Origin: Gammaproteobacteria bacterium
GTDB taxonomy: Bacteria > Pseudomonadota > Gammaproteobacteria > UBA4575
Direction of reading: 5' to 3'
DNA length: 60,797 nt
Assembly: GCA_045105815.1 (NCBI GenBank)
Contig: JBGCDX010000039.1
Span: 1-60,797, forward strand
This document shows positions 1 to 50,408 of this stretch, piece after piece (position 1 is the first letter of the stretch; each line of letters begins with the position of its first letter). The notes beneath the pieces are model-generated. The model saw only the letters and a list, made by a program, of their open reading frames with translations, was not told where the DNA came from and searched no databases. The position numbers and the translations under genes were made by a program.

Positions 1-1010
1 TCTAGTTTTTTGGCTTTTATTTCCAAATTCTCTGCTTCATTATGTAATTCTTCCGCAGTTCTTAATGTTTCCATGCTGCGCAATAGCAATAATTCTTTTG
101 CTTGCTCTGCAATGCAATTTAAGAGACTTGGATCCCCCACATCTAACTCAAATATTGCTGCAGTTTCTGTAATTTCCTGTGATATACCTTCTAAGTTAAA
201 AAGAAATGCATCTTTATTCATGCCTAGTATTTTTTCACATACACTCGCTGCATAATGAAAGTCTTTCTTACATTCATCACTACAAATACAATCAGCAATA
301 ACATTTGATACTTCTATACAGTTTTCAGCAGGTGTCGCATTCCCTACGTTTTCATATCTTTCTTCGTTATGGCTAATGGCTACTAAATTAATTATCCTTT
401 CAGGCAAATTCCATTTTTCTAGCAGCCAAGCACCTACTGAAGCATGATCAGCGCCGACAATATCTTTTTCAATTTGTTGAACAATTTTATGTTGATGTTG
501 GTCAGTATTAATATCAAGGTAAATATCAGGCACTGCTTTATCTAAAGCCAACATTCCAATATCTTGTAATAAGCCTGGCAAAAACAAATCTTCTTTTCTA
601 CTATCTATACCTACAACTTTTCCTAAATGTTTTGCAGCTACTGCTGCAGACACTGACCGTTTCCAAAAAAAGTTATAGTCGAGTCCTTTCGACTTTGAGG
701 AATCTATTTTTGATACTAGTGAAAAACTAAGCGCTAAGTTTAAGGTGCCATTCCATCCAAACATCATCACTGCTTGCTCCAGACTATCCACAGACACAGC
801 TCGTGAGTACATCGGAGAATTTGCCATACGTAATACTTTTACTGTCAGAGCAGGATCTAAACTGACAACCTCAGCTAACACAGAAATATTACTGCTTGAA
901 TCTGCGCTTAATCCAATAATCTGCTCTGCCACACCTGGTGGTGTTGGCAAATCAATACAACGTTCTAGTCGAGCAATCAGATCTAGATTTTTAAGCACAG
1001 TGGTTTTCAT
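1..1010 (-). CDS. HDOD-domain signalling protein, N-terminal part (gene runs off the left edge)
   Basis: Absent from the ORF track because its stop is off-window. Manual minus-strand translation from ATG 1010-1008 stays open to position 1: MKTTVLKNLDLIARLERCIDLPTPPGVAEQIIGL...LDPALTVKVLRMANSPMYS...GADHASVGAWLLEKWNLPERI, a typical HDOD pattern. It ends in a coiled-coil-like stretch, so an output domain probably lies off-window. Confidence 0.7.
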   Translation of the reverse strand, partial: MKTTVLKNLDLIARLERCIDLPTPPGVAEQIIGLSADSSSNISVLAEVVSLDPALTVKVLRMANSPMYSRAVSVDSLEQAVMMFGWNGTLNLALSFSLVSKIDSSKSKGLDYNFFWKRSVSAAVAAKHLGKVVGIDSRKEDLFLPGLLQDIGMLALDKAVPDIYLDINTDQHQHKIVQQIEKDIVGADHASVGAWLLEKWNLPERIINLVAISHNEERYENVGNATPAENCIEVSNVIADCICSDECKKDFHYAASVCEKILGMNKDAFLFNLEGISQEITETAAIFELDVGDPSLLNCIAEQAKELLLLRSMETLRTAEELHNEAENLEIKAKKL

Positions 1011-1116
1011 CCATTTTTATTGAGGCTTTATCCTTAACTACCCAGTGAAAAAGTACTCAATTCACTTATATAGGTTAACGGTAAGAATCTTATAATCTTG
1101 AGCAAAAATCTGACCT

Positions 1117-3240
1117 CTAAGTAACTCTTTTTGGCTTGCCAACTCCATAACCTTGAGCATAGTCAACACCAATATCCTTGAGAATATCGAGTATTTCGTT
1201 ATTTTCGACAAATTCAGCAATAGTTTGCATGCCCATAGCTTTGGCTACTTCATTGATAGAGCGGACAATTGCACGGTCTTTGTCATTTTCGACGATATTC
1301 TTGACGAATGCCCCATCAATTTTAAGATAATCAACGGGAAGATCCTTAAGATAACCGAATGATGATAAACCACTACCAAAATCATCTAGTGCAAACTTGA
1401 CCCCTATTGCTTTAAGTTTGGTAATAATATTAATAGCTTTTTTAATGCTAGAAATCGCTGCTGTTTCAGTAATCTCAAAGCAAACAGACTCAGGTTTTAA
1501 TTGTGAAGCTTTTAACTCTGCCTCAATAAAGTCTAAAGTATATGGATCACTGACAGTATTACCTGATAGATTTATAGATATCACCACATCACTCTCAGCA
1601 TGTTCTTGTCTATGAAATTGAAATGCTTTCCTAATAACAAAGCGATCAACATCTGTAATCATGCCGTAGCGTTCAGCTACTCTAATGAAATCATTCGGCG
1701 AAATAATATTACCTTTAGCATCAAGTATTCTAGAAAGAACTTCATAGTGAGGTACCTCATCATCTAGATTTGTTACAGATACAATTGGTTGTTTCATTAA
1801 AAATAATCGATCATTGTTCAATGCATCATTGATTTCGCTTACATATGAAAATTCTGATGATCGTTCTATAATTGCAGTATCATTTGTATGGGCAATATGC
1901 ATTTGATTACGGCCCAATTCTTTAGCCCGATAACAAGCCATATCTGCTTGACTCATAACCATTGCTTCATTAGTTGAATTTTCATCTATTATTGCAATAC
2001 CTATGCTCACGCCCACCTTAAATCTTTGCTTGTCCCATTCAAAAACATATTGATTAATGCCACGTAAAATATTTTCACATACCGCTACAGCATTATCTAA
2101 TGGGCAACCTTCTAGTATTATCCCAAATTCATCACCCCCTAAACGCGCTACTATATCTGAAGCACGTACCTTATCTTCTAGTATTTGGCATAAGCATATT
2201 AAAAGATTATCACCTGCTGCATGGCCAGCAGCATCATTAACTACTTTAAAATGATCTAGGTCTAGGTAACATAATATTGAATCTTCTTTTTTATCTTTGA
2301 TGCCAGTAAGTATACGTTTGAGCTGTTTTTCAAATTCATTACGATTTACTAAACCTGTTAAAGAATCATGCTTAGCATCATATGCAATTCTTTCAAGCAA
2401 GGATTTTTCTTCTGTAATACTTCTTATGACACCACGATATCCTTCAAATTCATTCTTATCGTTAAATATAGGCTTGGCATTTACTCTAAAAATATCTACT
2501 TCTTTGTTTTCATTTTTTACATTGAAGGTGAAATTTGAGATATCTCCCTTTTTCTGTAATATTTTTGTATATTCGTCAAAGTCAAATTCACATTTTTTGC
2601 TGTTTGAAAATAGAGTTTCAAAGCTTTTTCCTAAAGGATATATAGAACATTCACCGATGAGATTTGAAATTGATCCTGATATATATGAATAATTTAGATC
2701 TTTATCTAATTCCCAAAATATATTTGCAGCAGTTTCTGCAAAGTCCTTAAATCTCTTTTCACTCTGAATGAGTTTTTCTTTGGCAATTCTATGTTGAGTG
2801 ATGTTTGTACTCACACCAAGCTCATATATTTTACTATTTGATTTATCTAATAATGGCTGCTTAGTAGTTTGTAGCCATAATTTTTTGCCTTCTTTATCTG
2901 TGATCGTTTCCTCAAGAATTACTCTTTCTTGTTTGCTATGCATCACTACCGTATCTATTTTGATACAACTTTCCATATTCCATTCTTTATGAGTGATATC
3001 TTCGTTACCTTTACCAATCAGTTCTTTTACTGAAAACCCATACATATTTGCTATTGCTTCATTAACTAAAACAAATCTTCCATCAGCATCACGTACAGAT
3101 ATTAAATTAGGAACTTTGTCGATCACTTCTTGTAGAAGATCCATATCTTTTTTGAGTTGATCAATCTGCAATTGATATGGTGATTTTTCTGACAGATCTT
3201 CATCATCGAGCAAAAATAATTTTTTTCTGTTTGATTGCAT
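1117..3240 (-). CDS. PAS-PAS-GGDEF-EAL c-di-GMP turnover protein (EAL phosphodiesterase motifs intact)
   Basis: 707 aa ORF. RASD I-site followed by RLGGDEFGIIL. EAL-domain motifs YEVLSRI, CFEITE, DDFGSG, LKIDG, AQGYG. N-terminal PAS-like repeats. Confidence 0.9.
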   Translation of the reverse strand: MQSNRKKLFLLDDEDLSEKSPYQLQIDQLKKDMDLLQEVIDKVPNLISVRDADGRFVLVNEAIANMYGFSVKELIGKGNEDITHKEWNMESCIKIDTVVMHSKQERVILEETITDKEGKKLWLQTTKQPLLDKSNSKIYELGVSTNITQHRIAKEKLIQSEKRFKDFAETAANIFWELDKDLNYSYISGSISNLIGECSIYPLGKSFETLFSNSKKCEFDFDEYTKILQKKGDISNFTFNVKNENKEVDIFRVNAKPIFNDKNEFEGYRGVIRSITEEKSLLERIAYDAKHDSLTGLVNRNEFEKQLKRILTGIKDKKEDSILCYLDLDHFKVVNDAAGHAAGDNLLICLCQILEDKVRASDIVARLGGDEFGIILEGCPLDNAVAVCENILRGINQYVFEWDKQRFKVGVSIGIAIIDENSTNEAMVMSQADMACYRAKELGRNQMHIAHTNDTAIIERSSEFSYVSEINDALNNDRLFLMKQPIVSVTNLDDEVPHYEVLSRILDAKGNIISPNDFIRVAERYGMITDVDRFVIRKAFQFHRQEHAESDVVISINLSGNTVSDPYTLDFIEAELKASQLKPESVCFEITETAAISSIKKAINIITKLKAIGVKFALDDFGSGLSSFGYLKDLPVDYLKIDGAFVKNIVENDKDRAIVRSINEVAKAMGMQTIAEFVENNEILDILKDIGVDYAQGYGVGKPKRVT

Positions 3241-3451
3241 AATTGCAAATACTTATTGTTATTTAATGTGGTCCACAGCACTAAGCTGATTTGACATAAT
3301 TATTGAATTACCATAACAAGGGCATGTGCTTTCAGGATTCATTTTAATAGTTATTATGATTGGCTCACGCATGTAACTTATTTAATAAGTATATTTAGTT
3401 GATAGTTAATAAATGAAGATCAATCACTCCAAAACTATAGGCACTAATAAC

Positions 3452-3478
3452 TTATCGGCTTCATCAATAACTACTTTA
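3452..3478 (-). promoter_or_regulatory. sigma-28 (FliA)-type promoter facing the GGDEF-EAL gene
   Basis: Minus strand reads TAAA-GTAGTTATTGATGAA-GCCGATAA, an exact TAAA-N15-GCCGATAA match. It lies about 210 nt upstream of the ATG at 3240, with no convincing ORF between. Confidence 0.6.
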
Positions 3479-3511
3479 AGATCATATAACCTATTGTAAT
3501 TATTGAATTAT

Positions 3512-3813: not shown

Positions 3814-4275
3814 TCAAGCCGCTTTTGAATTTGAGTGTAGAGCTAATATTAATTCTGCTTCTGACTCTGTAAGCGAACATAATGAAATAATATCTTCTCT
3901 AGCATACCCTCGTCGCGCCAGTTGAACAGCCTGGGTATACGGCGCATTATTAAATAACTTTCCATCATTACTTGATGCTTCATCCGTTACAGATTTTTTC
4001 TCAACACTGTTTAGTGCCTTATTAAGCTCGTTTTGCCCAAGCTTCAACATTCCTAATTCCTCATCAATCAAACGATTAAAGCCCGTAATATCATCTATTT
4101 CATTAAATTGGGTTTTTTCTAACTTAATAACCTTTCTACTTACTATGAATGTCGACACTAGCATTACTAGCACCGAGAATAGTAAAACAGATTGTTCATA
4201 GCTAGCTCCAAATGCCAGGCCTATTTCATTCAAAAGACTCGTAATAGAATCATAATTAAAACTATAAATTTCCAT
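3814..4275 (-). CDS. DUF2802-like flagellar-cluster protein (single N-terminal TM, C-terminal helix-turn-helix-like tail)
   Basis: 153 aa. TM segment SVLLFSVLVMLVSTFIV. C-terminal YTQAVQLARRGYAREDIISLCSLTESEAELILAL resembles DUF2802 proteins, which sit at the end of fliA/che operons in Vibrio and Pseudomonas. Confidence 0.55.
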   Translation of the reverse strand: MEIYSFNYDSITSLLNEIGLAFGASYEQSVLLFSVLVMLVSTFIVSRKVIKLEKTQFNEIDDITGFNRLIDEELGMLKLGQNELNKALNSVEKKSVTDEASSNDGKLFNNAPYTQAVQLARRGYAREDIISLCSLTESEAELILALHSNSKAA

Positions 4276-4533: not shown

Positions 4534-5268
4534 CTAGTTTTTATTTTCTAACCATTCGCTCAATCTTGCTCGTAACATTACTAAAGCTTTACCATGTATT
4601 TGACAAACACGTGATTCACTTACTTCTAAAAGTGCACCTATTTCACGCAAATTCATTTCTTCTTCATAATAAAGTGACATCACTAATCTTTCCCGCTCTG
4701 GCAATTGATTAATTGTAGAAGTTAATTCTGAATGAAATTTTTCATCTATATATTCTTTATCAGGATCTGAGTCAGAACTCATTTCCATTTTATAGTCGGT
4801 TGAATCTTCACTTTCATCAATGCTATAAATTTGAGCTACAGATGAATCTCGTAAAATTTTATTATATTCATTTAGTTCAACGCCCATCTCCTGAGCAATT
4901 TCTGTGTCTGTGGCACTTGATAATGTCCGATTTTCTACTTTCCGTATAGCTTCCATCATATCTCTAGACTTACGGTGGACAGATCTAGGAGTCCAATCAC
5001 CGCGTCTAATCTCATCTAACATTGCTCCACGAATTCGTATCCCTGCATAAGTTTCAAAACTAGCACCTTGAGTAGGATTAAAATTTCTAGCTGCTTCCAA
5101 TAAACCAACCATACCTGATTGAATTAAGTCATCTACTAAAACAGTATCAGGCAACCTTCCTTTTAAATGATATGCAATTCTTTTTACTAGAGAAGCATGC
5201 TGAGTAACAACACCTTCAATATCTAGATTTTGAACTGCCGTGTAACTAGCTGTTGCTGCATCATTCAT
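4534..5268 (-). CDS. fliA: flagellar sigma factor FliA (sigma-28)
   Basis: 244 aa. Sigma-70-family region 2 (DLIQSGMVGLLEAARNF) and region 4.2 HTH (LREIGALLEVSESRVCQIH). Located directly after flhG. Confidence 0.93.
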   Translation of the reverse strand: MNDAATASYTAVQNLDIEGVVTQHASLVKRIAYHLKGRLPDTVLVDDLIQSGMVGLLEAARNFNPTQGASFETYAGIRIRGAMLDEIRRGDWTPRSVHRKSRDMMEAIRKVENRTLSSATDTEIAQEMGVELNEYNKILRDSSVAQIYSIDESEDSTDYKMEMSSDSDPDKEYIDEKFHSELTSTINQLPERERLVMSLYYEEEMNLREIGALLEVSESRVCQIHGKALVMLRARLSEWLENKN

Positions 5269-5285: not shown

Positions 5286-6161
5286 TTATTGGTTTGACAA
5301 CTGGCGTTCTAGAAACAGTTCTACTGAACCACTAGCATTACTTGATATAGGCAGACTATTTACATGTCTGGCTAATCGAACAAAACCTAATGAGGAACGA
5401 CTAGCAGGATAAGCATCTATCACCGATTGCTGCTTCTTGATTGCCTTTTTTACATAATTATCATTTGGAATGTATCCACAATATTCTAATGAAGCTTCTA
5501 AAAAGTGATTTGAAACTTTTTCTAGTTGTGAAAATAATCTTTGGCCATGAGCACTCGACTCAACCATATTGGTAATAATCTGAAATTTTTGTTTTACACC
5601 TTTTTTACTTAATATTTTTATCAAAGCATACGCATCAGCTAATGATGCAGGCTCATCACAGACTACAATTAATATATTATTAGCTAGTTGTGTAAATAGA
5701 GAAACATTCTCACTTATGCCTGGAGCAGTATCGATAATGAAGTAATCTAAAGATGGGTTAAACTGACTGATTGAATCAATAATGCCCATATGTTCCCGGG
5801 CACTTAAATTAGCCATCTCTCTAACACCTGAAGCTGCAGGGATAATCTGAACTCCATGGGGTCCATTAAGTACAATATCTTCAATACCACACTCATTCTT
5901 TAATACATGGTGTAAATTCTTTCTTGCACGCATCCCTAACATTACATCAATATTAGATAACCCAAAGTCTGCGTCCAATAACATTACTCTTCTCTGAAGG
6001 TCTGCAAGCGCAATTGCTAAATTTATAGCAATATTGGATTTACCAACGCCTCCTTTACCACCCGTAATTGCTAATACATTAATCTCATCAATAACATTCA
6101 TATTTCTCAGCGATGAAGCTTGATCTATCGGCGTAACACTACAATTTTTCTGCTCAAACAT
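5286..6161 (-). CDS. flhG: MinD/ParA-type flagellar number regulator FlhG (FleN)
   Basis: 291 aa. Deviant Walker A GGKGGVGKS. Overlaps the flhF stop by 8 nt. Confidence 0.9.
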   Translation of the reverse strand: MFEQKNCSVTPIDQASSLRNMNVIDEINVLAITGGKGGVGKSNIAINLAIALADLQRRVMLLDADFGLSNIDVMLGMRARKNLHHVLKNECGIEDIVLNGPHGVQIIPAASGVREMANLSAREHMGIIDSISQFNPSLDYFIIDTAPGISENVSLFTQLANNILIVVCDEPASLADAYALIKILSKKGVKQKFQIITNMVESSAHGQRLFSQLEKVSNHFLEASLEYCGYIPNDNYVKKAIKKQQSVIDAYPASRSSLGFVRLARHVNSLPISSNASGSVELFLERQLSNQ

Positions 6162-7335
6162 TTTTTACTAACTCACTATATAATTCAGTTGAATGTAGAG
6201 ACTCCATACTTCCAAATCTCTCCCCATAATCTAAAGCTTTTGCTATTATTTCATCTTGATTTGGTCGACAAATATCTTCCGGAACGCTTTGGCCTGTAGT
6301 TTCATAAGCCAGTGACAGATTTTGTTCTATAAGTGCAGTCAAAATCCCACCAATCTGTGAAGCTTCATCAGTTTTACTCACTACAACACCACTTAGACCC
6401 TCTGACATAAAGTTATTAATGGTTTCTTTTTGAACACAGAGCTGTGAGTTTGCTGAGATGACTAAATAAGTAATCAAATCTTTTGATAATTTACTTAGTG
6501 CAAGCATTTCTTCTTTCACACGTGGATCACGTTGACTTAACCCAGCAGTATCAATCAGTATAAGTTTTTTATTTTTAACCACATGAAGTGCTTTAAGAAG
6601 TTCAGTTTCATTATTGGCCGTAAGCACAGGGACGTTAAGGATACTTCCATAGATACTTATCTGATCATGTGCTCCTATACGATAGTGATCAGTACTAATT
6701 ATCGCTACATCTTGATTACCATGTTGCATAGCATATTGAGCCGCTATTTTGGCAATTGTAGTAGTTTTCCCAACTCCTGTAGGACCCACTAATGCAACCA
6801 TACCGCCATCTTCTATGACATTACCTTGAGTAATCGACACCTTATCTTTCAAATTACTTTCTATTAAGCTCCATGATTCATCAAAATTATTAATATTTTT
6901 AGCAACATCTAATAATTTTTTGCTTAAATTAAACCCAAAACCACTTATAGATAACTTTTGTAATAATTTCCTAGTAGATGTGTTTTGAGAAATAATTTTT
7001 CTCCAACTAATTAATTCCGTTTGAGACTCAATAATTGCACGCAATTGGCTAATTTCTTGCTGTATAGCTGATGTATCAAACTCATGAACTAAAGGTTCAT
7101 GGAATGACTGACTATTTGTTTCTGATTTCTCATTTACAATAGCATCACTTTCATAAACTTTTGAGCTTGATACAACATCACTATTTGCAACAGCTTCGTA
7201 ATCTGTTGCAGCTACCACTTCAACTCCAGTCGAATTCTGATTTGAGGAAATAATTACAGCATCATCACCAAGTTCTTCACGGATTTTCTGAAGAGCTGTA
7301 TGCATATTTTTCTCATTAAATCTTTTCATGTCCAT
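6154..7335 (-). CDS. flhF: SRP-type GTPase FlhF (flagellar placement)
   Basis: 393 aa. GPTGVGKTTT, DTAG and SKTDE G-motifs. N-terminal MKRFNEKNMHTALQKIREELGDDAVIIS is typical of FlhF. The start may be the second Met at 7329. Confidence 0.9.
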   Translation of the reverse strand: MDMKRFNEKNMHTALQKIREELGDDAVIISSNQNSTGVEVVAATDYEAVANSDVVSSSKVYESDAIVNEKSETNSQSFHEPLVHEFDTSAIQQEISQLRAIIESQTELISWRKIISQNTSTRKLLQKLSISGFGFNLSKKLLDVAKNINNFDESWSLIESNLKDKVSITQGNVIEDGGMVALVGPTGVGKTTTIAKIAAQYAMQHGNQDVAIISTDHYRIGAHDQISIYGSILNVPVLTANNETELLKALHVVKNKKLILIDTAGLSQRDPRVKEEMLALSKLSKDLITYLVISANSQLCVQKETINNFMSEGLSGVVVSKTDEASQIGGILTALIEQNLSLAYETTGQSVPEDICRPNQDEIIAKALDYGERFGSMESLHSTELYSELVKNV

Positions 7336-7381
7336 ATTTTTAATCCTTTCATATTTAACTAACCAAAAATATAATAGTTAG

Positions 7382-9502
7382 TTAAGCAGCCGTAGCTGAA
7401 AGCTGTTGTATAGCATCATTCTGCTCACCTACGCTTGCTGTAATATTTATCCTCTTTGATTCTGGTATTTCATCAAATGACAAAATATGCAGATTTTTAA
7501 CACTGGTTTTAAATAATTTTGACAACATAATTCGTAAACCACTTGTTACTAATAACACTGGAGGCAAACCTACAGCTTCCTGTTGTTGAGCTAAATCACG
7601 AACTGAATCTTGCATCTTCTCTGCTAAGGTCGGCTCTAAAGCAAAATAATTATCAGGTCCCTCATGTATAGTCTTCTGCAATAACTGTTCCAACTTTGGA
7701 GAAAGTGTAAACACGGACAAATCTTTACGCATCCCATTGATTTCCTGAACAATTGCTCTTCGTAAAGCAATGCGCACAATAGATGTTAAAGCGTCAGCAT
7801 TTTGGCTAGTGTTTGCCGCATCCGCCAATGTTTCAACGATTGTCCTAATGTCTTTTATAGGTACACCTTCTTGCAGCAAATTTTGCATTACCTTCACAAC
7901 CGTACTCATAGGTAATGTTTTAGGCACTAAATCTTCAACAAGTTGTGGTGATTTTTCAGCTAAAGAATCAAGCAATTGCTTGGTTTCTTCATAACCTAAG
8001 AAGTAATGAGCACTTTCACGTAGTATTTTACTAAGGTGAGTAGCTACTACAGTGCTTGGATCGACAACGGTATACCCTAAGGTCTGAGCTTGATCACGCT
8101 GCCCTGGTTCAATCCAAATAGCTTCCATTTCAAAAGCTGGATCTTTCGTTACAATTCCATCAATCTTTCCGCTTACATTGCCTGGATTAATCGCTAACTC
8201 ACGATCAGTGAATACCTCACCTTCACCCTCAGTAACCCCTTGAATGACAATGCGGTAATTATTTGCCGGCAAATCTAAGTTGTCTCTTATGTGAACAGGT
8301 TGTAGCAAGAAGCCAAGATCTTGAGAAACTTTTTTACGAACACCTTTAATGCGACCAATTAATTCACCTTGTTGTTCTTTATCTACTAAGGAAATTAATC
8401 GATAACCTACTTCTAAACGAATAACGTCTACAGTTTGCATGTCACCCCAACTAAGCTCTACCTCATCTGGTGAAGCGTTAGATTCATTTTCATCATCTAC
8501 ATCCTCTACATTATTCTCTTCGGCATCTATAAGATTTGAAGTCATTTTTGCAAAAAATAAACACATTCCCGCTATCATTAAAAAAACAACATTAGGCATA
8601 CCAGGAATAAGACCCATACCACCAATAATTGAAGCCGTGATATACCAGACACGTTTATCTTTAAATATTTGATTAACAACAGTAGCTCCCATATTTTGAG
8701 AAGCTGATACACGCGTTACAATTATCGCAGTAGCAGTTGATAATAATAGGGATGGAATTTGCGCAACTAATCCATCACCAATAGATAACAATAAATAATT
8801 CTGTGTAGCCACTGCAAAACTTAGATCATGTTGAGCCATACCAATGGTCAAACCACCGATAATATTTATAAAAATAATTAATATTCCAGCGATAGCATCG
8901 CCACGTACAAATTTACTTGCACCATCCATGGAGCCATAAAAATCTGCCTCATTCGAAATATCTTCTCTTCTTTGTAATGCATCTTCTTGTGAAATCAATC
9001 CAGAATTTAAATCTGCATCAATTGCCATCTGTTTACCAGGCATTGCGTCTAATGTGAATCGTGCGCTTACTTCAGACACGCGCCCCGCACCTTTTGTAAC
9101 TACAACAAAATTTATAATCACAAGAATGGTAAATATGACAAAACCAACCGCATAATTACCTCCTACAACAAAGTTACCAAACGATTCAATCACATTCCCA
9201 GCAGCCCCTGTGCCTGTATGACCATTAATCAGTACCACGCGAGTTGATGCAACATTAAGAGCTAAACGCAGCATGGTTGCGACAAGCAACACTGTTGGGA
9301 AAACTGCAAAATCTAATGGCCTAAGGGTATAAATGCTTACCAAAATAATAATTAATGCCAAGGCAATATTAAATGTGAAAACCAAATCCAATGCAAAAGG
9401 TGGTAATGGCACAATCATCATACTGAACATTAAGATCAGTAATAATGGTGTACCTAATCCATTTTTTGAGAATTCTTTGAATGTACCTAAAGCGCTATCC
9501 AC
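7382..9502 (-). CDS. flhA: flagellar export apparatus protein FlhA
   Basis: 706 aa. Polytopic N-terminus plus cytoplasmic domain. FHIPEP signature RFTLDAMPGKQMAIDADLN. Confidence 0.95.
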   Translation of the reverse strand: MDSALGTFKEFSKNGLGTPLLLILMFSMMIVPLPPFALDLVFTFNIALALIIILVSIYTLRPLDFAVFPTVLLVATMLRLALNVASTRVVLINGHTGTGAAGNVIESFGNFVVGGNYAVGFVIFTILVIINFVVVTKGAGRVSEVSARFTLDAMPGKQMAIDADLNSGLISQEDALQRREDISNEADFYGSMDGASKFVRGDAIAGILIIFINIIGGLTIGMAQHDLSFAVATQNYLLLSIGDGLVAQIPSLLLSTATAIIVTRVSASQNMGATVVNQIFKDKRVWYITASIIGGMGLIPGMPNVVFLMIAGMCLFFAKMTSNLIDAEENNVEDVDDENESNASPDEVELSWGDMQTVDVIRLEVGYRLISLVDKEQQGELIGRIKGVRKKVSQDLGFLLQPVHIRDNLDLPANNYRIVIQGVTEGEGEVFTDRELAINPGNVSGKIDGIVTKDPAFEMEAIWIEPGQRDQAQTLGYTVVDPSTVVATHLSKILRESAHYFLGYEETKQLLDSLAEKSPQLVEDLVPKTLPMSTVVKVMQNLLQEGVPIKDIRTIVETLADAANTSQNADALTSIVRIALRRAIVQEINGMRKDLSVFTLSPKLEQLLQKTIHEGPDNYFALEPTLAEKMQDSVRDLAQQQEAVGLPPVLLVTSGLRIMLSKLFKTSVKNLHILSFDEIPESKRINITASVGEQNDAIQQLSATAA

Positions 9503-9518
9503 GTCAATATCCTTTTAC

Positions 9519-10646
9519 TTAATCAACTCTATATTCATTTGGTATTTCTAATTCATCCGGTGGATCCGGATACTTTCCTGGCATTGCATTTTTTAATTGA
9601 AATACGTAAGCCAATACCTTAGCGACTGAAACATACAATCCATAAGGTATTTCTTTATTTAATTCGGTACTATAATAAACAGCTCTTGCTAATGCAGGTG
9701 CACAAAAAACATTGACTTCATTTTTTAATGCAATTTCTTTTATTTTTTCTGCTACAAAATCAATACCCTTAGCGACTACTAATGGTGCTTTAGATTTATC
9801 TACATCGTATTTTAATGCAACTGCAAAGTGTGTTGGATTAGTAATAATTACATCTGCATCTGGCACATCTTCCATCATCCTTTTTTGTGCTAATTCTCTT
9901 TGTAAATTTCGCATGCGTCCTTTATTTTCTGGATTTCCCTCAGTTTCTTTGAGCTCATCTTTAACTTCTTGCAAGGTCATGCGTAACTGCTTATTGTGGT
10001 TCCAAAATTGGTAAGGCGCATCTATCAATGCCACCAGTATTAATCCAGCTGATGCCACAGTAAAAATAAGAATTATCAACTTATATGAATGTGCAATACT
10101 ATTTTGAGTGGTTTCAAATCCTAGATTCAATATTTCTGGTGTGAACATTCTTAGCAGTGTGTAAACAATGAAACCAATTAGTCCAACTTTTAACAATGCT
10201 TTTAATAATTCAACAAGGCCTTGTACCCCAAACATGCGTTTGAAACCAGAAAATGGGCTTAATCTACTCATTTTGAAAGCCATTGCTTTCGTAGAGAACG
10301 ACATTCCGCCAATCATCATTGGGCCAAATAATGCGATAACAAACATAAATGCCATATAAGGAAGAAGTGCGAATAATGCTGTGAGACTACTTTCTGTAAA
10401 ATGCGGGAGCATATAGTTTTTATCCATAATATGACTAATTGGTAATTGAAAATTATGTAATAAAATTTTATGCAAACTTTCAGAGATCGTGCCTGTAAAA
10501 AATATCAATGAGCATGAACCGATAAATGTAACCAACATCGTATTTAGTTCACGCGATCTAGGCACTTGCCCTTTTTTGCGTGAATCATCTAATCGTTTCT
10601 GTGTAGGTTCTTGTGTTTTATCTTGCTGTGCAGTTTTATCTGACAT
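9519..10646 (-). CDS. flhB: flagellar export switch protein FlhB
   Basis: 375 aa. Four TM segments and the NPTH autocleavage site (VIITNPTHFAVALKY). Confidence 0.95.
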   Translation of the reverse strand: MSDKTAQQDKTQEPTQKRLDDSRKKGQVPRSRELNTMLVTFIGSCSLIFFTGTISESLHKILLHNFQLPISHIMDKNYMLPHFTESSLTALFALLPYMAFMFVIALFGPMMIGGMSFSTKAMAFKMSRLSPFSGFKRMFGVQGLVELLKALLKVGLIGFIVYTLLRMFTPEILNLGFETTQNSIAHSYKLIILIFTVASAGLILVALIDAPYQFWNHNKQLRMTLQEVKDELKETEGNPENKGRMRNLQRELAQKRMMEDVPDADVIITNPTHFAVALKYDVDKSKAPLVVAKGIDFVAEKIKEIALKNEVNVFCAPALARAVYYSTELNKEIPYGLYVSVAKVLAYVFQLKNAMPGKYPDPPDELEIPNEYRVD

Positions 10647-10658
10647 ACATGCCTCCCC

Positions 10659-11426
10659 TTATCTAATGAGAGGCATTTTTTCAAATGCAGCGTTTAATAA
10701 ATTCTGAAAAACAGTGGCCATACTAGGTAATGTTAATGCTATAACTACTAAGCCCAAGATTATCGTAATCGGAAATCCTACTGAGAATACATTTAACTGA
10801 GGTGCAGCACGTGTCATCAATGCAAGTGCAGAGTTAGCAATTAAAAGAGCAGTAATCGCTGGTATAGCCACCATTAATGCACCTGAGAACATATTCGTTG
10901 CCCATGAAACTACATCCCACAAAGCATTTTGGTGCTGAAATGTAGATCCAATAGGTATGTATGTGAAACTATCAAACAACATATTAATTAGTGCCAAATG
11001 CCCGTCTAATGCCAAAAACAATAATGTCGCAGATATTGTTAAAAATTGACTAACAATAGGCACGGTTACACCGTTAACTGGATCAGTTATTTGAGCGAAA
11101 CCTAAACCCATAGTTACAGCAATATTCTCACCAGCAATCGTTAAAGCTGAAAATACCAATCTCAGCATAAAGCCCATTAACAAACCAATCAGAATTTGAA
11201 TGCCAATTTGAATGAAGCCGACAGATGAAAAAAGTATGACTTCTTGCGAATTTGTTAATAAAGGAAACATAAATATAGTTATTACTGAAGCTATAGCTAC
11301 TTTTATTCTTAACTGCAAAAAAGGACTACTCAATATAGGTGCTACTGAAAATAGTGCAGCAACTCTTGAAAATGGCAAAATAAAATCACCAACATTAGAC
11401 ATTAATTCATTAATTTGAAAAACCAT
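10659..11426 (-). CDS. fliR: flagellar export gate protein FliR
   Basis: 255 aa polytopic membrane protein between fliQ and flhB. Confidence 0.9.
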   Translation of the reverse strand: MVFQINELMSNVGDFILPFSRVAALFSVAPILSSPFLQLRIKVAIASVITIFMFPLLTNSQEVILFSSVGFIQIGIQILIGLLMGFMLRLVFSALTIAGENIAVTMGLGFAQITDPVNGVTVPIVSQFLTISATLLFLALDGHLALINMLFDSFTYIPIGSTFQHQNALWDVVSWATNMFSGALMVAIPAITALLIANSALALMTRAAPQLNVFSVGFPITIILGLVVIALTLPSMATVFQNLLNAAFEKMPLIR

Positions 11427-11442
11427 CTGATTATTTCTATAT

Positions 11443-11712
11443 CTAAATCAGCAAAGTTGGAATATTTGTAATCAAATTAGTGACATATGTTGTTAATGTA
11501 CTAAGCATCCATGGGCCAGCTATCAAAAGTGTTAGAAACAAAACTATTAACTTAGGTATAAAACTCAATGTCATTTCATTAATTTGAGTAGCTGCTTGTA
11601 GCATTCCTATAAATACGCCAATTGCTAAAACAGCAAGTAATATTGGTGCCGCAACAATGACTGTTATCCATAATGCATTGTTTAATAGTGTTAATGTTGC
11701 TTCTGGCGTCAT
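11443..11712 (-). CDS. fliQ: flagellar export gate protein FliQ
   Basis: 89 aa from ATG 11712 (MTPEATLTLLNNALWITV...). The track ORF extends to 11772, which would overlap the fliP 3' end. The shorter start leaves an 11-nt gap after the fliP stop. Confidence 0.9.
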   Translation of the reverse strand: MTPEATLTLLNNALWITVIVAAPILLAVLAIGVFIGMLQAATQINEMTLSFIPKLIVLFLTLLIAGPWMLSTLTTYVTNLITNIPTLLI

Positions 11713-11723
11713 ATTAAATCCAA

Positions 11724-12915: not shown

Positions 12916-12923
12916 TAATTAAG

Positions 12924-38151: not shown

Positions 38152-38177
38152 AATCTATCTATATCCTTAATTTTTTA

Positions 38178-39407
38178 TTAACGAATATTAATAATGGTTT
38201 GAGTAATCGTATCTGCCGTACTAATTACCTGGGCATTCGCTTGAAAATTACGTTGTGTTTGAATAAGGCTAATCAACTCACCCGTAACATCCACGTTTGA
38301 CTCTTCTAGAGATCCTGATTGAACTAAACCCAAATCTGCAGACCCAGGCGAACCAATAAGCGGCTGACCTGAAGCGAAACTTTCTGTCCATAATGAATTA
38401 CCTACCGGACGTAAGCCTTGTGTATTAGCAAAGTTAGCTAAAGCAACTTGTCCCAAGGCTAATGATTCACCATTGGTATAGCGTGCAAACAAGGTTCCCG
38501 ATTGATCAAAGTCCAATGAACTTAAACGGCCGGTTGAAAAACCATTTTGATCGATTGCACTGATACCGAAGCCGCCACCAAATTGAGTGATATCTCCATA
38601 ATCAACTGTGAAGGTAGTAGGTGCGCCAACACCTCCCGGTACAAATGCTGCAGAAGTAGCGGTTGATGCACCTGCAGTACCATTAATGGCTGTTAAAGCA
38701 CCAAACGCATCAAATGTTAATGTATCAGGACCTGATACTTGGGTGTTATCTACAAACTGAAATACTTCCCAATCTGTTGCAGTATTCTTTCTGAAATAAT
38801 TTGTACTCACATGCTCACCACCCAAAGAATCAAATACCGTATAGGAAGCTGCATGGTTATAAGTAGCAGGATCTGGCCCCGTTGCACCCACCAAGAAAGC
38901 GGGAAGAATCGGTTCTGATGCATCAATATTAGCATCAAGATTTATCGTGCTGGTTACATTTGGTGCAACGTTTGCTCGACTAATGGCAAGTGGTCCTTGT
39001 GCACCGGTTAAATTTCCAGCTGCATCTGACTGAAACCCCACTAAACCATTCCCAGATGTATTTACAATATTTCCAAGATTATCTACTTGGAAGGCGCCAG
39101 CACGCGAGAAGGTTTGCACACCGCCATCATCTAATACAAAAAAACCACCGCCTGAAATCGCAAGGTCTAATGAGTTATCCGTAAAAGTAATATCGCCATC
39201 TGTAAACTGTTGAGTGATTGCTGCAACTTGCACACCTTGACCAATTGCATTACTAGATGTTCCAAATTCAGAAGTTGCATACAAATCTGCAAACTCTGCC
39301 CTTGATCGTTTAAAACCTGTTGTTTCACTATTGGCAATGTTGTTCGAAATAACCTGTAAATCGTTTTGAGCTGCATTCAGTCCTGTAAGTGCAATATCAA
39401 ATGGCAT
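38178..39407 (-). CDS. flgE: hook protein FlgE
   Basis: 409 aa. N-terminal FDIALTGLNAAQNDLQVISNNIANSETTGFK and C-terminal SNVDVTGELISLIQTQRNFQAN. Confidence 0.95.
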   Translation of the reverse strand: MPFDIALTGLNAAQNDLQVISNNIANSETTGFKRSRAEFADLYATSEFGTSSNAIGQGVQVAAITQQFTDGDITFTDNSLDLAISGGGFFVLDDGGVQTFSRAGAFQVDNLGNIVNTSGNGLVGFQSDAAGNLTGAQGPLAISRANVAPNVTSTINLDANIDASEPILPAFLVGATGPDPATYNHAASYTVFDSLGGEHVSTNYFRKNTATDWEVFQFVDNTQVSGPDTLTFDAFGALTAINGTAGASTATSAAFVPGGVGAPTTFTVDYGDITQFGGGFGISAIDQNGFSTGRLSSLDFDQSGTLFARYTNGESLALGQVALANFANTQGLRPVGNSLWTESFASGQPLIGSPGSADLGLVQSGSLEESNVDVTGELISLIQTQRNFQANAQVISTADTITQTIINIR

Positions 39408-39450
39408 AATAATTCTCCCTATTTATTAATAAAATTAACTTCATGATTTT

Positions 39451-40116
39451 TTATTCAATTTTCAATATCTCAGATATATTTAATTCTCCACCGTTTTCTA
39501 TATTCAAGCGTACTGAACTTGAACTTTCACCGAGTGAAATGCTTTCAATCTGCTTATATGCATAAGTATCTAAAGAAACACTTTCCTCACCTTGAGAGCC
39601 CACAACTGAGAAGAAGTACTCTCCTTCAGGAGCTTGATTACCACTAGCATCAGTGCCATCCCATTCAAAATCTTGTAATTCTTGATTAACCACTCCCAGT
39701 GGTACGCTTTGCACCAAGTTTCCTGCTGCATCAAAAATACTAACGTTTACGTTATTTGTAGGAGAACTGGTACCGATAGCCCCTTTAACAGACTCACCAT
39801 CTTTTAAATTCAAACTATCTGATGGAATTAATGCATTCTTTCCAATCAAGTTTGTAGCACCAAGTGTTTGACTTGAAAGTAATGAGCTTGCCAGATTACT
39901 GACTGAGTTATTTAATTCTCCAATTCCTGATACGGTTCCAAACTCTGCGAGCTGCCCTATAAACTCTCCACTCTGCAAAGGCTCAAATGGATCTTGATTC
40001 TGTAATTGAGTAACCATAAGCTCTAGAAAATCTTCTTGCCCAAGATCATCTGAACCAGATTCTTGTGTCTGAGGTGAATTAATTAAACTTAAAATATCTG
40101 ATGAGATTGCTTGCAT
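39451..40116 (-). CDS. flgD: hook cap protein FlgD
   Basis: 221 aa. FLELMVTQLQNQDPFEPL block. Confidence 0.93.
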   Translation of the reverse strand: MQAISSDILSLINSPQTQESGSDDLGQEDFLELMVTQLQNQDPFEPLQSGEFIGQLAEFGTVSGIGELNNSVSNLASSLLSSQTLGATNLIGKNALIPSDSLNLKDGESVKGAIGTSSPTNNVNVSIFDAAGNLVQSVPLGVVNQELQDFEWDGTDASGNQAPEGEYFFSVVGSQGEESVSLDTYAYKQIESISLGESSSSVRLNIENGGELNISEILKIE

Positions 40117-40131
40117 ATTTATTTACCTTTT

Positions 40132-40557
40132 TTATAACCTGCCCAAACGTAATGTTTGCAACAATAATTCTTTAGATGTGTTTAACACTTCAATATTAGA
40201 TTGATAGCTACTTTTAGCTGACATCATATTTGTCATTTCTTCCATAACATTCACATTTGACAAATATATATAACCTTCTTCGTTTGCCAATGGGTTTCCA
40301 GGTTGATATTGAGCAACATTTTCAGCTTGGCTTTCTACTATTCCAACCGTACGCAACCCAGCACTAGCAGAAGCATTAGGACCATTTAACTGACCTTGCA
40401 ACTCTGCTGCAAATACTGGTTGTCTAGATCTATATGCATCTTCGGGTGTGCTCGATATTGATTCTGCATTTGCCAAATTACTTGCAACTGTATTTAAACG
40501 TGTATTTTGAGCACTTAAACCACTTGCTGAGATATCAAATATATTAAATAGTGACAT
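40132..40557 (-). CDS. flgC: proximal rod protein FlgC
   Basis: 141 aa. ISASGLSAQNTRLNTVASNLANAES. Confidence 0.95.
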   Translation of the reverse strand: MSLFNIFDISASGLSAQNTRLNTVASNLANAESISSTPEDAYRSRQPVFAAELQGQLNGPNASASAGLRTVGIVESQAENVAQYQPGNPLANEEGYIYLSNVNVMEEMTNMMSAKSSYQSNIEVLNTSKELLLQTLRLGRL

Positions 40558-40559
40558 TT

Positions 40560-40964
40560 TTATTCGCCCTTCAAGTTATTTATTAAACCTTGAATTTTAT
40601 TGTTAAGCATCGTTAAACTAATCTGATAACGTACTGCGTTTTCAGCAAACTTACCTTTCTCAACATGACTATCTACTGTATTGCCATCTAATGACGCATG
40701 TTCAGGAATACGGTATTTTGTTTGTAATGCATATGAGTCTGTTGAACTACTGGAAATATGATTCCCATGACTAGTAACGATAGACACAGGTTTTATTGAT
40801 CCAACATTTTTATTAGAATTAAGAATAGAAGCAAAATCTAAATCTTTAGCTTTGTAGTTTGGCGTATCAGCATTGATGATATTTGATGCTAATATTTCTG
40901 CACGCTTTGACCGTGCTAAAACAGATTGCGCACTAATGCCAAAATGATTATCTATTATGCTCAC
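40560..40964 (-). CDS. flgB: proximal rod protein FlgB
   Basis: 134 aa. RAEILASNIINADTPNYKAKDLDF. First gene after a sigma-54 promoter. Confidence 0.93.
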   Translation of the reverse strand: MSIIDNHFGISAQSVLARSKRAEILASNIINADTPNYKAKDLDFASILNSNKNVGSIKPVSIVTSHGNHISSSSTDSYALQTKYRIPEHASLDGNTVDSHVEKGKFAENAVRYQISLTMLNNKIQGLINNLKGE

Positions 40965-41273: not shown

Positions 41274-41975
41274 ATGCAAAAATATTTACTAACCATAACT
41301 CTAACTCTCTTCGCAACATTCATTAACATGAGTGCGGCCTATGCCAATATCCAAAGCCATGCAAGTTTGCATAAAGCGGTCTTAAGCTTCTTAGAAACAG
41401 AAACTCAAGATAGTCAAGACTCTGAGATTAGCGTACGAGATTTTGATAAACGATTACGACTCCACCAATGCTCCGCTCCACTAAAGGCATTCTGGCCGAT
41501 GGGTAATAAGCGCTTTGGCAATACAACGGTTGGTGTTAGGTGCTCGGGCGACAAGCCTTGGAAAATCTTTGTTGGCGCACATATACATATATATAAGAGT
41601 GTATGGGTATCGAATACTGGCCTAAACCGTAACCAAATACTTGATTTAGGCTCGGTTAGTAAAGAAAAGCGTGATATTACACGACTAACTTCGGGTTATT
41701 TGCTTTCAGACACTCCTATTGCTGGAATGCAGATAAAAAGAAATATTCCATCAAATCATGTACTTACCAACACCATGTTAGATTCACAAAAGATGGTGAA
41801 GCGTGGAGACCGAATCACTATTATCTCTAGAGCTGGTGGAATTGAAGTCCGTGCAACAGGTGTTGCCTTAAGTGATGGGAGCAAAGGTGAGCGAATTAGG
41901 GTTAAAAACACTAGCTCTAAGCGTGAAATTGAGGCCTACGTCTCCGGTAGACACTTAGTATTGGTAACTCTTTGA
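41274..41975 (+). CDS. flgA: P-ring assembly chaperone FlgA
   Basis: 233 aa. Signal peptide and C-terminal VKRGDRITIISRAGGIEVRATGVALSDGSKGERIRVKN. Divergent from flgB. Confidence 0.9.
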   Translation: MQKYLLTITLTLFATFINMSAAYANIQSHASLHKAVLSFLETETQDSQDSEISVRDFDKRLRLHQCSAPLKAFWPMGNKRFGNTTVGVRCSGDKPWKIFVGAHIHIYKSVWVSNTGLNRNQILDLGSVSKEKRDITRLTSGYLLSDTPIAGMQIKRNIPSNHVLTNTMLDSQKMVKRGDRITIISRAGGIEVRATGVALSDGSKGERIRVKNTSSKREIEAYVSGRHLVLVTL

Positions 41976-42005
41976 CAGAAATCACAAAAAAATCAGTTAA
42001 AGTTC

Positions 42006-42032
42006 TAAAGTTAATATAAAAACAGCCGATAA
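42006..42032 (+). promoter_or_regulatory. sigma-28 promoter of flgMN
   Basis: TAAA-GTTAATATAAAAACA-GCCGATAA, an exact consensus match, 30 nt upstream of the flgM ATG. Confidence 0.8.
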
Positions 42033-42061
42033 GCAGCTTAGAGAAAACGAGAATAGAGACC

Positions 42062-42370
42062 ATGACAGACAAAATTAACAATATAAGTGGGCCGATAAAC
42101 GGTAGCAACTTACAAAACACTTCTAAGGGTGCGAGCAATACTAATTCAAAGGTTAGTGGAAATGAATCCGCTAATGTCGCTAGCTCGGGCAAAGTCGACA
42201 TTTCTTCCGCCCAAACCCTAGATAAGATCAGAGAAAGCTTGGCATCGGAGCCAGTTATTGATCGACAGAAAGTCGAGACAGTGAAACAAGCGTTACAAGA
42301 TGGAACTTACAATATAAATTCGGAGAATATCGCGACCAAGCTTATTGAGATCGAACAACTCTTGAAGTAG
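42062..42370 (+). CDS. flgM: anti-sigma-28 factor FlgM
   Basis: 102 aa. C-terminal VETVKQALQDGTYNINSENIATKLIE. Confidence 0.9.
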   Translation: MTDKINNISGPINGSNLQNTSKGASNTNSKVSGNESANVASSGKVDISSAQTLDKIRESLASEPVIDRQKVETVKQALQDGTYNINSENIATKLIEIEQLLK

Positions 42371-42373
42371 TTT

Positions 42374-42886
42374 ATGAGTTCATCCGATCCCAGCATTAAT
42401 ACGGGCCTGCATAATGACCCCTATGCGACCTCCACTATTGAGGGCTTTCTTACACACTTCAATAAAAAGCTAGAGGCTTTTGTTGAGATATTACAGCATG
42501 ATCAAGAGACCTTAATTAAAGGTAGTGCGGACGAAATCAGTCAGTCTGCACAGAACAAGCTGACATATATACAAACTTTATCTGACTTTATTGCTAACTA
42601 TTTTAATAATACATCAAACAGCAACAGTCTTGAGGAATCACTCAAGATGATGAATGTGATTTGTATCGAGAAAAAAATACAACAATGGAATGAATCACTA
42701 GATTTAATTCATTTTTGTCGAGAGTTATCTGATGAAAACAGTATATTACTTGCTAACCGCCTAAAATCTACTAACAACGCACTTGATACCCTTTACTCAT
42801 TAACAGGCTCTCAACAAACAAAAACTTATGACGACAGTGGTCATTCCAAGCATTCACATATATCTAGACAATTAGCTTCCGTCTAA
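42374..42886 (+). CDS. flgN: FlgK/FlgL chaperone FlgN
   Basis: 170 aa helical protein, 3 nt after flgM. Confidence 0.75.
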   Translation: MSSSDPSINTGLHNDPYATSTIEGFLTHFNKKLEAFVEILQHDQETLIKGSADEISQSAQNKLTYIQTLSDFIANYFNNTSNSNSLEESLKMMNVICIEKKIQQWNESLDLIHFCRELSDENSILLANRLKSTNNALDTLYSLTGSQQTKTYDDSGHSKHSHISRQLASV

Positions 42887-47352: not shown

Positions 47353-47379
47353 ATATCGACTGTAGATGAATATTCTTTA
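47353..47379 (-). promoter_or_regulatory. sigma-28-type promoter in front of the FMN-enzyme/cyclase pair
   Basis: Minus strand reads TAAA-GAATATTCATCTACA-GTCGATAT (N15), 26 nt upstream of the ATG at 47327. Confidence 0.5.
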
Positions 47380-49750: not shown

Positions 49751-49857
49751 TTACAAACGCTCCTTATTTAACTAATTTTCAACCAGTACATTTTTATAAC
49801 TTACTGTTTTATATATGTTTTTATTTGCTGCGAAGATAGACTCTTGCGACATAGTTA

Positions 49858-49884
49858 GTAACGGCCAAAACATATAAATATTTA
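49858..49884 (-). promoter_or_regulatory. sigma-28-type promoter of the motAB-pilZ operon (variant -10 GCCGTTAC)
   Basis: Minus strand reads TAAA-TATTTATATGTTTTG-GCCGTTAC (N15). The same variant -10 octamer recurs with the same spacing at 59839-59865. Confidence 0.5.
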
Positions 49885-49964
49885 GCTATTAGCCAATAAT
49901 TAGGTGCTTTACTGACGGGTGAACTTAGTAGTATTTGAAATCCAAGGAATTTTCAAAAAATGCT

Positions 49965-49990
49965 TAAAAATCAAGTAAATATGCCGATAC
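49965..49990 (+). promoter_or_regulatory. sigma-28-type promoter of the CheY-like gene
   Basis: TAAA-AATCAAGTAAATAT-GCCGATAC (N14), 58 nt upstream of the ATG at 50049. Divergent from the motA promoter. Confidence 0.45.
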
Positions 49991-50048
49991 AAGCTCATGA
50001 AGTAGCAACAAAATTGATGTGTATCTAGATTAAAATGAGCCTGTTTGT

Positions 50049-50408
50049 ATGAAAATCCTAATTGTTGATGATAGTCAGGCAATGCGCAAAATCATCAAGT
50101 GGACAATTAAATTAGCTGATATGAATGCTGATGAGTTTTTTGAAGCCTCTTGTAGTGATGATGCTCTTTTAATATCAGAAACCAAAAAACTAGATTTAAT
50201 AATTACAGATTGGAATATGCCAGAAATGGGTGGCTTAGCATTACTTAAAGCGTTAAGAGATTCTCAAAATATGGTTAGATTCGGATTTGTTGTTACACAA
50301 TCGTCAACAAATATTTATAACTTAGCAAAAGATGCGGGCGCAAACTTCATCATATCTAATCCAAGCTCTTCCAATACATTTAAAGCTCAAGTAAACCAAA
50401 CATTATAA
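50049..50408 (+). CDS. single-domain CheY-like receiver with Asn at the conserved Lys (K109-equivalent) position
   Basis: 119 aa. DD (7-8), ITDWNMPEMGG phospho-acceptor context and VVTQ Thr are present, but FIISNP replaces the YVVKP-type motif. Confidence 0.85.
   Translation: MKILIVDDSQAMRKIIKWTIKLADMNADEFFEASCSDDALLISETKKLDLIITDWNMPEMGGLALLKALRDSQNMVRFGFVVTQSSTNIYNLAKDAGANFIISNPSSSNTFKAQVNQTL

Follow-up and report, generated by a model that had tools for sequence, protein, structure and literature searches.

A flagellar gene supercluster flanked by cyclic di-GMP genes, with a predicted tPilZ protein in the stator operon, in an uncultured gammaproteobacterium

When the hook-basal body of the flagellum is finished, FlgM is exported and the sigma-28 factor FliA is freed, and in Escherichia coli PdeH and YcgR are products of class 3 genes. 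In Pseudomonas putida the PAS-GGDEF-EAL protein PP2258 is linked to FlgZ, which is encoded in the FliA-driven flgM-flgN-flgZ operon (PMC6093933), and the FliA regulon of Legionella includes the PAS-GGDEF-EAL protein lpp0952 (PMC5655016). The coupling of cyclic di-GMP (c-di-GMP) to the motor is well studied, but only for effectors of the YcgR/FlgZ/MotI type and for canonical PilZ proteins. The tPilZ proteins number in the thousands and have been described as of unknown function (10.1101/814665; 10.1101/2020.02.11.943704). The function of this family is known from Campylobacter only, where FlgX of C. jejuni, a c-di-GMP-blind structural partner of the stator, lies under MotA, binds it, and stabilizes the stator ring; it has no motifs for the binding of c-di-GMP and cannot bind the ligand (PMC11725899). 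PA2989 of P. aeruginosa, a tPilZ that keeps these motifs, binds c-di-GMP at 188 nM, and the authors of the FlgX study raise the question of whether stators of other phyla also have tPilZ partners (PMC11725899). Here we describe the contig JBGCDX010000039.1 (the window, i.e., the whole contig of 60,797 bases, ~35% G+C) from an uncultured low-GC gammaproteobacterium, in which c-di-GMP genes stand on both sides of one flagellar supercluster and the stator operon has the organization motA-motB-tPilZ. We read the locus as a FliA-timed c-di-GMP module, whose effector at the motor would be the stator-associated tPilZ and whose second receptor would be a GGDEF protein retaining only its I-site, and we regard this reading as fairly probable. 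Its most interesting part is the motA-motB-tPilZ operon, which lies outside what the first-pass annotation of this DNA had recognized.

The PilZ protein of the stator operon

The gene for the PilZ protein is the third of the stator operon, running in the same direction as motA and motB and starting 18 nucleotides (nt) past the latter (Table 1). The first-pass annotation had described it as fused into this operon; its co-directional placement right behind motB is as claimed, but there is no protein fusion, and its tPilZ type was missed. The protein has the motifs expected of a PilZ domain that binds c-di-GMP, namely RxxxR as RSAFR (residues 19-23) and NxSxxG as NISASG (residues 115-120), ~90 residues apart, with R19, R23, and G120 invariant across the family. 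In the AlphaFold model a six-stranded barrel (strands 26-35, 110-116, 120-125, 134-140, 147-159, and 167-175) accommodates two long helices (37-77 and 79-103) between β1 and β2, and the chain ends in a basic amphipathic helix (178-201; EDREAIHAHVRGKEIKLIREK). An interlocking motif is seen as DDKIN at residues 89-93; the clade shows no variation at D89, K91, or N93, and K91 is also unchanged across 16 distant members. The motif matches in 74 of 80 metagenome copies. The best PDB matches of the model in Foldseek are to the Xanthomonas tetrameric PilZ XCC6012 (3PH1/3RQA; nearly the whole chain, 172-181 columns, E 3e-5, TM 0.5-0.6), and MotI, Alg44, MrkH, and YcgR match on the barrel alone. Thus, by predicted fold and motifs the window protein is a tPilZ, and it may form a tetramer. 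A Pfam scan recovered no further domain within its 202 residues. A YcgR/FlgZ/MotI-like identity was rejected, there being no match to the PilZN (YcgR_N) domain; in the loci L018, L019, and L025 a separate gene for a PilZN-PilZ protein adjoins the tPilZ gene, showing the two to be distinct proteins.

An exhaustive profile search recovered 376 clusters of this family at E <= 1e-30, rising to 2259 at E <= 1e-10, and almost all have ~200 residues. The motA-motB-tPilZ organization also occurs in Methylohalobius, Acidiferrobacteraceae, and two further lineages, the order flgA-flgM-flgN-(FlgZ-like)-tPilZ occurs in two lineages, and one sampled context is non-flagellar. In a metagenome sample of 80 tPilZ loci, seeded from one tPilZ sub-branch, the gene lies directly behind motA-motB in 48 of the 64 loci that are informative, i.e., extend 1 kb or more upstream of it. 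In the searchable literature we did not find a motAB-tPilZ operon, and only MotL, a canonical PilZ protein of 144 residues, is described downstream of motB. As a separate observation, a PAS-GGDEF-EAL-like or HDOD gene is present within ~4 kb of several unrelated-looking motA-motB-tPilZ loci (L039, L040, L050, L055, L063, L081; L064, L067, L068, L070, L090; L026), some of which possibly come from closely related genomes.

The sequence motifs of these proteins bear on the first-ranked of three rival explanations, under which the tPilZ would, like FlgX, serve the stator constitutively as a structural part or chaperone and escape control by c-di-GMP, and the cyclases and phosphodiesterase would have other outputs, such as adhesion, biofilm formation, or virulence, sharing only their timing with motility. 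The motifs RxxxR and [D/N]xSxxG are invariant in the tPilZ proteins of the clade and lost in FlgX and XCC6012, and among the motAB-linked members sampled RxxxR is kept in 53 of 53 and the strict [D/N]xSxxG in 41, a pattern that sits better with ligand binding of the kind found for PA2989 (PMC11725899). The rival draws its strength from FlgX itself, a tPilZ that stabilizes the stator ring without binding c-di-GMP (PMC11725899), and from the neighboring RTX and type I secretion system (T1SS) genes, which also have a sigma-28-like site and suggest that non-motor genes may share the regulon. On balance we consider it unlikely, if the most serious of the three. Returning to the c-di-GMP-binding reading, we tentatively suggest, as a distinct possibility that we would stop short of calling probable, that motA-motB-tPilZ represents a widespread and undescribed class of stator-bound c-di-GMP effectors, in which an FlgX-like tetramer under the MotA pentamer would be gated by c-di-GMP, with the clade's own FliA-timed cyclases and phosphodiesterase as its supply. 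The window locus along with the metagenome loci of this organization offers a genomic answer to the question of the FlgX authors, and yields the testable prediction that tPilZ is a c-di-GMP input to the stator in many proteobacteria.

c-di-GMP genes on both flanks and their sigma-28-type elements

A scan of one genome per species for the right flank recovered nine metagenome-assembled genomes (MAGs) labelled Gammaproteobacteria or Thiotrichales (L001-L009), whose PilZ proteins are 72-90% identical to the window copy. The gene order is the same in all nine: flgB..., flgAMN, degenerate GGDEF, cyclase, GltS-like, PilZ, motB, motA, and receiver, with the identity of the cyclase going down to 44% among them. 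For the left flank, all six independent contigs (L011, L012, L013, L021, L023, and L024) keep fliA, an open reading frame (ORF) of 57 codons, and the DUF2802, PAS-GGDEF-EAL, HDOD-GGDEF, and HDOD genes. As L003 and L011 are parts of one 1.28-Mb contig, ~47 kb apart, the whole bracket exists in that genome. Throughout the orthologs, the catalytic, I-site, and degenerate motifs are retained. The linkage in relatives for which the first-pass annotation had suggested a comparative check is hence borne out in nine right-side loci and six left-side contigs, and these comparisons support the c-di-GMP genes as conserved neighbors of the flagellar cluster on both sides.

Such conservation might also be an inherited gene order in a narrow clade with no functional coupling, the second-ranked rival, which gains from the facts that all close relatives belong to a single group of uncultured MAGs and that the right-side synteny extends to the T1SS genes as well. 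The left-side synteny, however, stops directly after the second HDOD gene, past which the genes differ among the six contigs, and the gain or loss of an ion-channel gene within the region has left the c-di-GMP genes in place. Moreover, sigma-28 footprints at four units are conserved amid diverged intergenic DNA, the motAB-tPilZ linkage recurs in distant lineages, and a homolog of the degenerate GGDEF protein occurs beside flagellar genes in another lineage. We therefore view an order kept by descent alone as improbable.

A Pfam HMM search recovered the five domain architectures named in the first-pass annotation (HDOD, PAS-GGDEF-EAL, two GGDEF, and PilZ), which had presented them as a set of c-di-GMP writers, erasers, and readers; an HDOD domain by itself is none of these. 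The frame at the left end of the contig indeed has an HDOD domain, but rather than being a simple HDOD protein it is probably the N-terminal part of an HDOD-GGDEF cyclase: its orthologs in the six left-side contigs are HDOD-GGDEF proteins of 511-516 residues that have GGEEF and an RxxD I-site and share 79% identity with the 336 residues present in the window, and are followed in these relatives by a second, HDOD-only gene. Given these orthologs, the left flank would hold another probable cyclase. In the adjacent PAS-GGDEF-EAL protein, the EAL motifs are intact as had been reported (EVLSR, SINLS, EITE, DDFGSGLSS, KIDG, EFVE, and QGY, the full catalytic set), and the GGDEF half, which had gone unmentioned, is intact too, with RLGGDEF and a RASD I-site as read from the translation. 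The motifs of both halves are kept in six orthologs. With both motif sets intact it could be bifunctional like PP2258 of P. putida (PMC6093933), making it a candidate dual-function cyclase/phosphodiesterase.

Several further observations concern this gene and its surroundings. The EAL protein is 826-830 residues long in five of the six related contigs, being ~120 residues longer N-terminally, and the shorter form of 705-707 residues is that of the window and its nearest relatives. In three of the six left-side contigs (L011 8958-9989, L013 8954-9982, and L023 6959-7990) the PAS-GGDEF-EAL gene is separated from the sigma-28 promoter by an ion-channel gene (Ion_trans, ~343 residues), which is absent there in the others. 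Upstream in the window lies a cysteine-rich ORF of 66 codons (3513-3712, minus strand) with no Pfam match and a sigma-28-like element of its own (3739-3765, TAAAG-N14-GTCGATAC); the element is kept in L011, L013, L021, and L024, in all four of which a matching ORF was detected or called.

On the right flank, the first-pass annotation had correctly identified a degenerate GGDEF protein with an intact I-site and a GGEEF cyclase without one. The former has GYDQF at the A-site and RDTD as the I-site five residues upstream; across the window and nine orthologs RDTD is invariant and the A-site drifts (GYDQF, GYDKF, GNDQF), which fits the role of a c-di-GMP receptor for the degenerate GGDEF domain. 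It is probably a second, FliA-independent receptor that uses the I-site only, following a PelD/PopA-like logic. A full-length homolog with an intact GGDEF is found in L025, from another lineage, beside DUF2802, motB, and flgAMN. The 479-residue coiled-coil cyclase has RFGGEEF and DIDHFKKFND but KKDY in place of the RxxD I-site, with GGEEF likewise present and RxxD absent in its nine orthologs, and by these motifs it is predicted to be an active diguanylate cyclase. The genes on this flank are as previously named, except that a gene for a membrane-anchored flavin mononucleotide (FMN)-binding Glu_synthase-family (GltS-like) protein had been overlooked: it separates the PilZ gene from the cyclase gene and is conserved in L001-L009. 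The GltS-like gene and the cyclase apparently share one transcript from a sigma-28-type promoter. Their pairing is kept in nine of nine relatives and the cyclase has no sensor domain of its own; through the GltS-like protein it could receive a redox or metabolic input.

The E. coli-type sigma-28 consensus (TAAA-N15-GCCGATAA) occurs exactly three times in the window, against 0.39 matches from shuffled sequence when up to one mismatch is allowed. Each of the three exact sites lies between genes in the proper orientation, one upstream of flagellin, one of flgM, and one of the PAS-GGDEF-EAL gene; the equivalent of the last has zero or one mismatch in all six left-side contigs. Ahead of the HDOD-GGDEF gene, T(C/T)AAG-N15-(A/G)CCGTTA is found at 84-98 nt in six of six left-side relatives. 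The element at the GltS-like gene is the exact consensus in four relatives and that at the CheY-like receiver in five, and the motA element lies 107-109 nt from the start codon in nine relatives, where CTAAAT and GGCCGTTA do not vary but the spacer does. As GCCGTTA replaces GCCGATA at flgM in three relatives, this clade would be able to use it as a -10 variant. The footprints at motA, GltS-like/cyclase, receiver, and flgM are positionally conserved across the window and L001-L009, with diverged spacers and flanks, and those at PAS-GGDEF-EAL and HDOD-GGDEF across the window and the six left-side loci. Taken singly, the weaker sites would carry no weight; they gain it as phylogenetic footprints. 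No sigma-28 element was found upstream of the degenerate GGDEF gene in any locus examined. The earlier count of sigma-28-type promoters at four of the five c-di-GMP units thus stands, one being exact and the others positionally conserved in 6-9 relatives, and with such elements at conserved positions it is reasonable to infer that the c-di-GMP genes belong to the late FliA-dependent tier. In the interval 43000-50500, a sigma-70 scan gave fewer promoter matches than shuffled controls, and a terminator scan gave none that is convincing between the PilZ and GltS-like genes. The 5' leader of motA (49751-49860, minus strand) displays a further invariant block, CAGTRAGTTAC, ~55 nt upstream of the start in nine of nine aligned sequences.

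Based on these elements, we propose the following sequence of events. Completion of the hook-basal body would lead to the export of FlgM and free FliA, which, going by the conserved promoter motifs, would transcribe flagellin, motA-motB-tPilZ, the GltS-like gene with the GGEEF cyclase, PAS-GGDEF-EAL, and the CheY-like receiver, with HDOD-GGDEF and the second HDOD gene as probable members of the same batch. The cyclases and the EAL domain would then set the c-di-GMP level when and where stators are made. The predicted tPilZ tetramer might dock under the cytoplasmic face of MotA as FlgX does, though unlike FlgX it keeps both c-di-GMP motifs, and binding of the ligand might alter stator engagement or torque in the manner of a brake, clutch, or stabilizer, as analogy and operon linkage suggest. 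The first-pass annotation had pictured the c-di-GMP genes as wired into the last tier of the flagellar cascade and aimed at the stator; the promoter footprints and the motAB-tPilZ operon agree with this, with FliA dependence read from sequence. The second part of that picture is supported by the motA-motB-PilZ operon, the assignment of this PilZ protein to tPilZ, and the binding of MotA by its relative FlgX.

The third-ranked rival has transcription as the main target of c-di-GMP rather than the motor, via the FleQ-like sigma-54 activator encoded in the window, as with Pseudomonas FleQ or Vibrio FlrA, both of which bind c-di-GMP. The window activator (24793-25932, minus strand) keeps the arginine after Walker A, but at only 379 residues it is missing the whole N-terminal FleQ/REC (receiver) domain, and such a target would leave a tPilZ gene in the stator operon unexplained. 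The positions provisionally equated with Pseudomonas R144 and N186, in an alignment that constitutes no test, read K and S. We accord this explanation little probability.

Several points do weigh against a FliA-timed module acting on the stator through c-di-GMP. It rests throughout on sequence comparison and predicted structure. FlgX works without c-di-GMP, leaving room for a purely structural tPilZ. The tPilZ model is that of a single chain with moderate confidence (pLDDT 74, pTM 0.63), and the link to tPilZ came from fold comparison alone and not from sequence profiles: a profile search with the PilZ alignment against PDB sequences gave nothing meaningful, the similarity to XCC6012 being undetectable, and the window protein and two distant relatives have no match to Pfam PF16823 (PilZ_2) at E <= 10. 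FlgX likewise escapes sequence models (PMC11725899), and so the PF16823 miss weakens only the sequence-based case for membership. The proportion of metagenome loci with the motAB linkage, 75%, may not hold family-wide in view of how the sample was seeded. The window elements at motA, the GltS-like gene, and HDOD have 2-3 mismatches to the E. coli consensus; the right-side synteny is without breakpoints among the sampled genomes and not separable there from shared ancestry; and the PAS-GGDEF-EAL protein may be either a net cyclase or a net phosphodiesterase.

Table 1. Features of the window
Feature	Position	Strand	Evidence and remarks
HDOD-GGDEF diguanylate cyclase (probable), N-terminal 336 residues	<1..1010	-	Pfam HDOD 2e-53; C-terminus cut by contig end
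Weak sigma-28-type element, TCAAG-N15-ACCGTTAA	1074..1100 (approximate)	-	~64 nt upstream of HDOD start; three mismatches
PAS-GGDEF-EAL, 707 residues	1117..3240	-	Pfam PAS, GGDEF 2e-40, EAL 3e-66
Exact sigma-28 motif, TAAAG-N14-GCCGATAA	3452..3478	-	211 nt upstream of PAS-GGDEF-EAL start
DUF2802 gene	3814..4275	-	Pfam 7e-12; last conserved gene of fliA operon region; present in all left-side loci
fliA (sigma-28)	4534..5268	-	NCBIfam FliA 3e-87
Flagellar structural and regulatory block	5286..40964	-	Gene order given in the text
flgA, flgM, flgN	41274..42886	+	Exact sigma-28 motif 42006-42032 upstream of flgM
Degenerate GGDEF protein, 309 residues	43300..44229	+	Pfam GGDEF 1e-30
Coiled-coil GGEEF diguanylate cyclase (predicted), 479 residues	44233..45672	-	Pfam GGDEF 6e-43, weak DGCcoil match
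GltS-like protein, 548 residues	45681..47327	-	Pfam Glu_synthase 1e-86
Sigma-28-type element, TAAAG-N14-GTCGATAT	47353..47379	-	25 nt upstream of GltS-like gene
tPilZ (by predicted fold and motifs), stand-alone, 202 residues	47434..48042	-	Pfam PilZ 1.9e-11 (residues 112-189)
motB	48061-48954	-	Pfam MotB_plug/OmpA
motA	48968-49750	-	Pfam MotA_ExbB
Sigma-28-type element, CTAAAT-N13-GCCGTTAC	49858..49884	-	107 nt upstream of motA
Sigma-28-type element, TAAA-N14-GCCGATAC	49965-49990	+	Upstream of CheY-like receiver, divergent from motA
CheY-like single-domain receiver	50049-50408	+	Divergent from motA

The flagellar gene set and other features of the contig

The flagellar genes constitute one complete polar-type set between 4534 and 42886, from fliA through flgB plus flgAMN. 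From fliA the order is fleN, flhF, flhA, flhB, fliRQPONML, fliK, a fliJ-like gene, and fliIHGFE, followed by a FleR/FleS-like two-component pair, the short FleQ-like activator considered above, fliS, fliD, flaG, and a single flagellin gene, and then by flgLKJIHGFEDCB, with flgA, flgM, and flgN running divergently from the flgB side. FliM (13289-14440, minus strand) has an acidic N-terminal extension of ~70 residues, after which comes an ILSDEERDAL stretch resembling the CheY-binding motif. Pseudomonas and Vibrio keep chemotaxis genes between fliA and the DUF2802 gene; in the window there are none at this position. An ORF of 56-57 codons (MVDSNKIG...DTIIDEYV; ~4304-4477, minus strand) lies between these two genes; it is called in six of six related contigs, where no Pfam family is recorded for it.

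The CheY-like receiver divergent from motA keeps a DWNMP motif and is missing the conserved lysine (IISNP). Beyond it, in 50623-54430, come genes for an NMT1-type binding protein, for a PAS-GAF histidine kinase, and for a further receiver, a group conserved in all relatives. The CheY-like receiver may be a non-chemotaxis input to the motor switch. At the right end (54446-60785, minus strand) is a type I secretion set, with HlyD and two ABC proteins, and an RTX-repeat protein; a sigma-28-like element, TAAAG...GCCGTTAC, is found at 59839-59865, upstream of the ABC gene at 57996-59750.

Comparison with described systems

Among the tPilZ proteins, FlgX shares with the window protein the predicted fold, a barrel with two long helices inserted and a charged helix at the C-terminus, and it too is linked to MotA/MotB, the window protein being so by the position of its gene. 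The flgX gene is, however, located between ubiA and flgW, whereas the window tPilZ gene stands third in the stator operon and its product keeps both binding motifs. XCC6012 is the best structural match, but has lost its own binding motifs, and its sequence similarity to the window protein is below detection; the latter resembles PA2989 in having retained them. In both XCC6012 and PA2989, RxxxR is placed >90 residues from the second motif and an interlocking motif of the form [DENH]x[KR]h[DEN] is present, as in the window protein (10.1101/814665; 10.1101/2020.02.11.943704). These papers report no stator linkage for either. In terms of gene organization, the nearest parallel is MotL of Shewanella putrefaciens, a stand-alone PilZ protein of the c-di-GMP type encoded directly downstream of motA-motB in a flagellar cluster (PMC8203827). 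MotL, though, is a canonical PilZ of 144 residues with no two-helix insert and belongs to lateral flagella, whereas the window has a 202-residue tPilZ in a polar-type cluster.

The first-pass annotation had held the configuration to be undescribed, which is overstated in light of PdeH/YcgR in E. coli, PP2258/FlgZ in P. putida, lpp0952 in Legionella, and MotL in Shewanella. In the circuits of E. coli, P. putida, and Legionella, as proposed for the window, expression of a c-di-GMP enzyme and of a PilZ protein acting on the motor depends on the late flagellar sigma factor, and in P. putida and Legionella the FliA-linked enzyme is also a PAS-GGDEF-EAL protein. The genes of these precedents are scattered or partly linked and their effector is of the YcgR/FlgZ type (PilZN + PilZ), whereas the window has its cyclases, EAL enzyme, tPilZ, and predicted I-site receptor placed physically around one supercluster. 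The clade hence offers a compact natural example in which writers, an eraser, and two predicted readers are co-located with the flagellar genes and apparently timed by sigma-28. The regulatory logic is already known from the described systems; what differs here is its physical concentration around one supercluster and the type of its effector.

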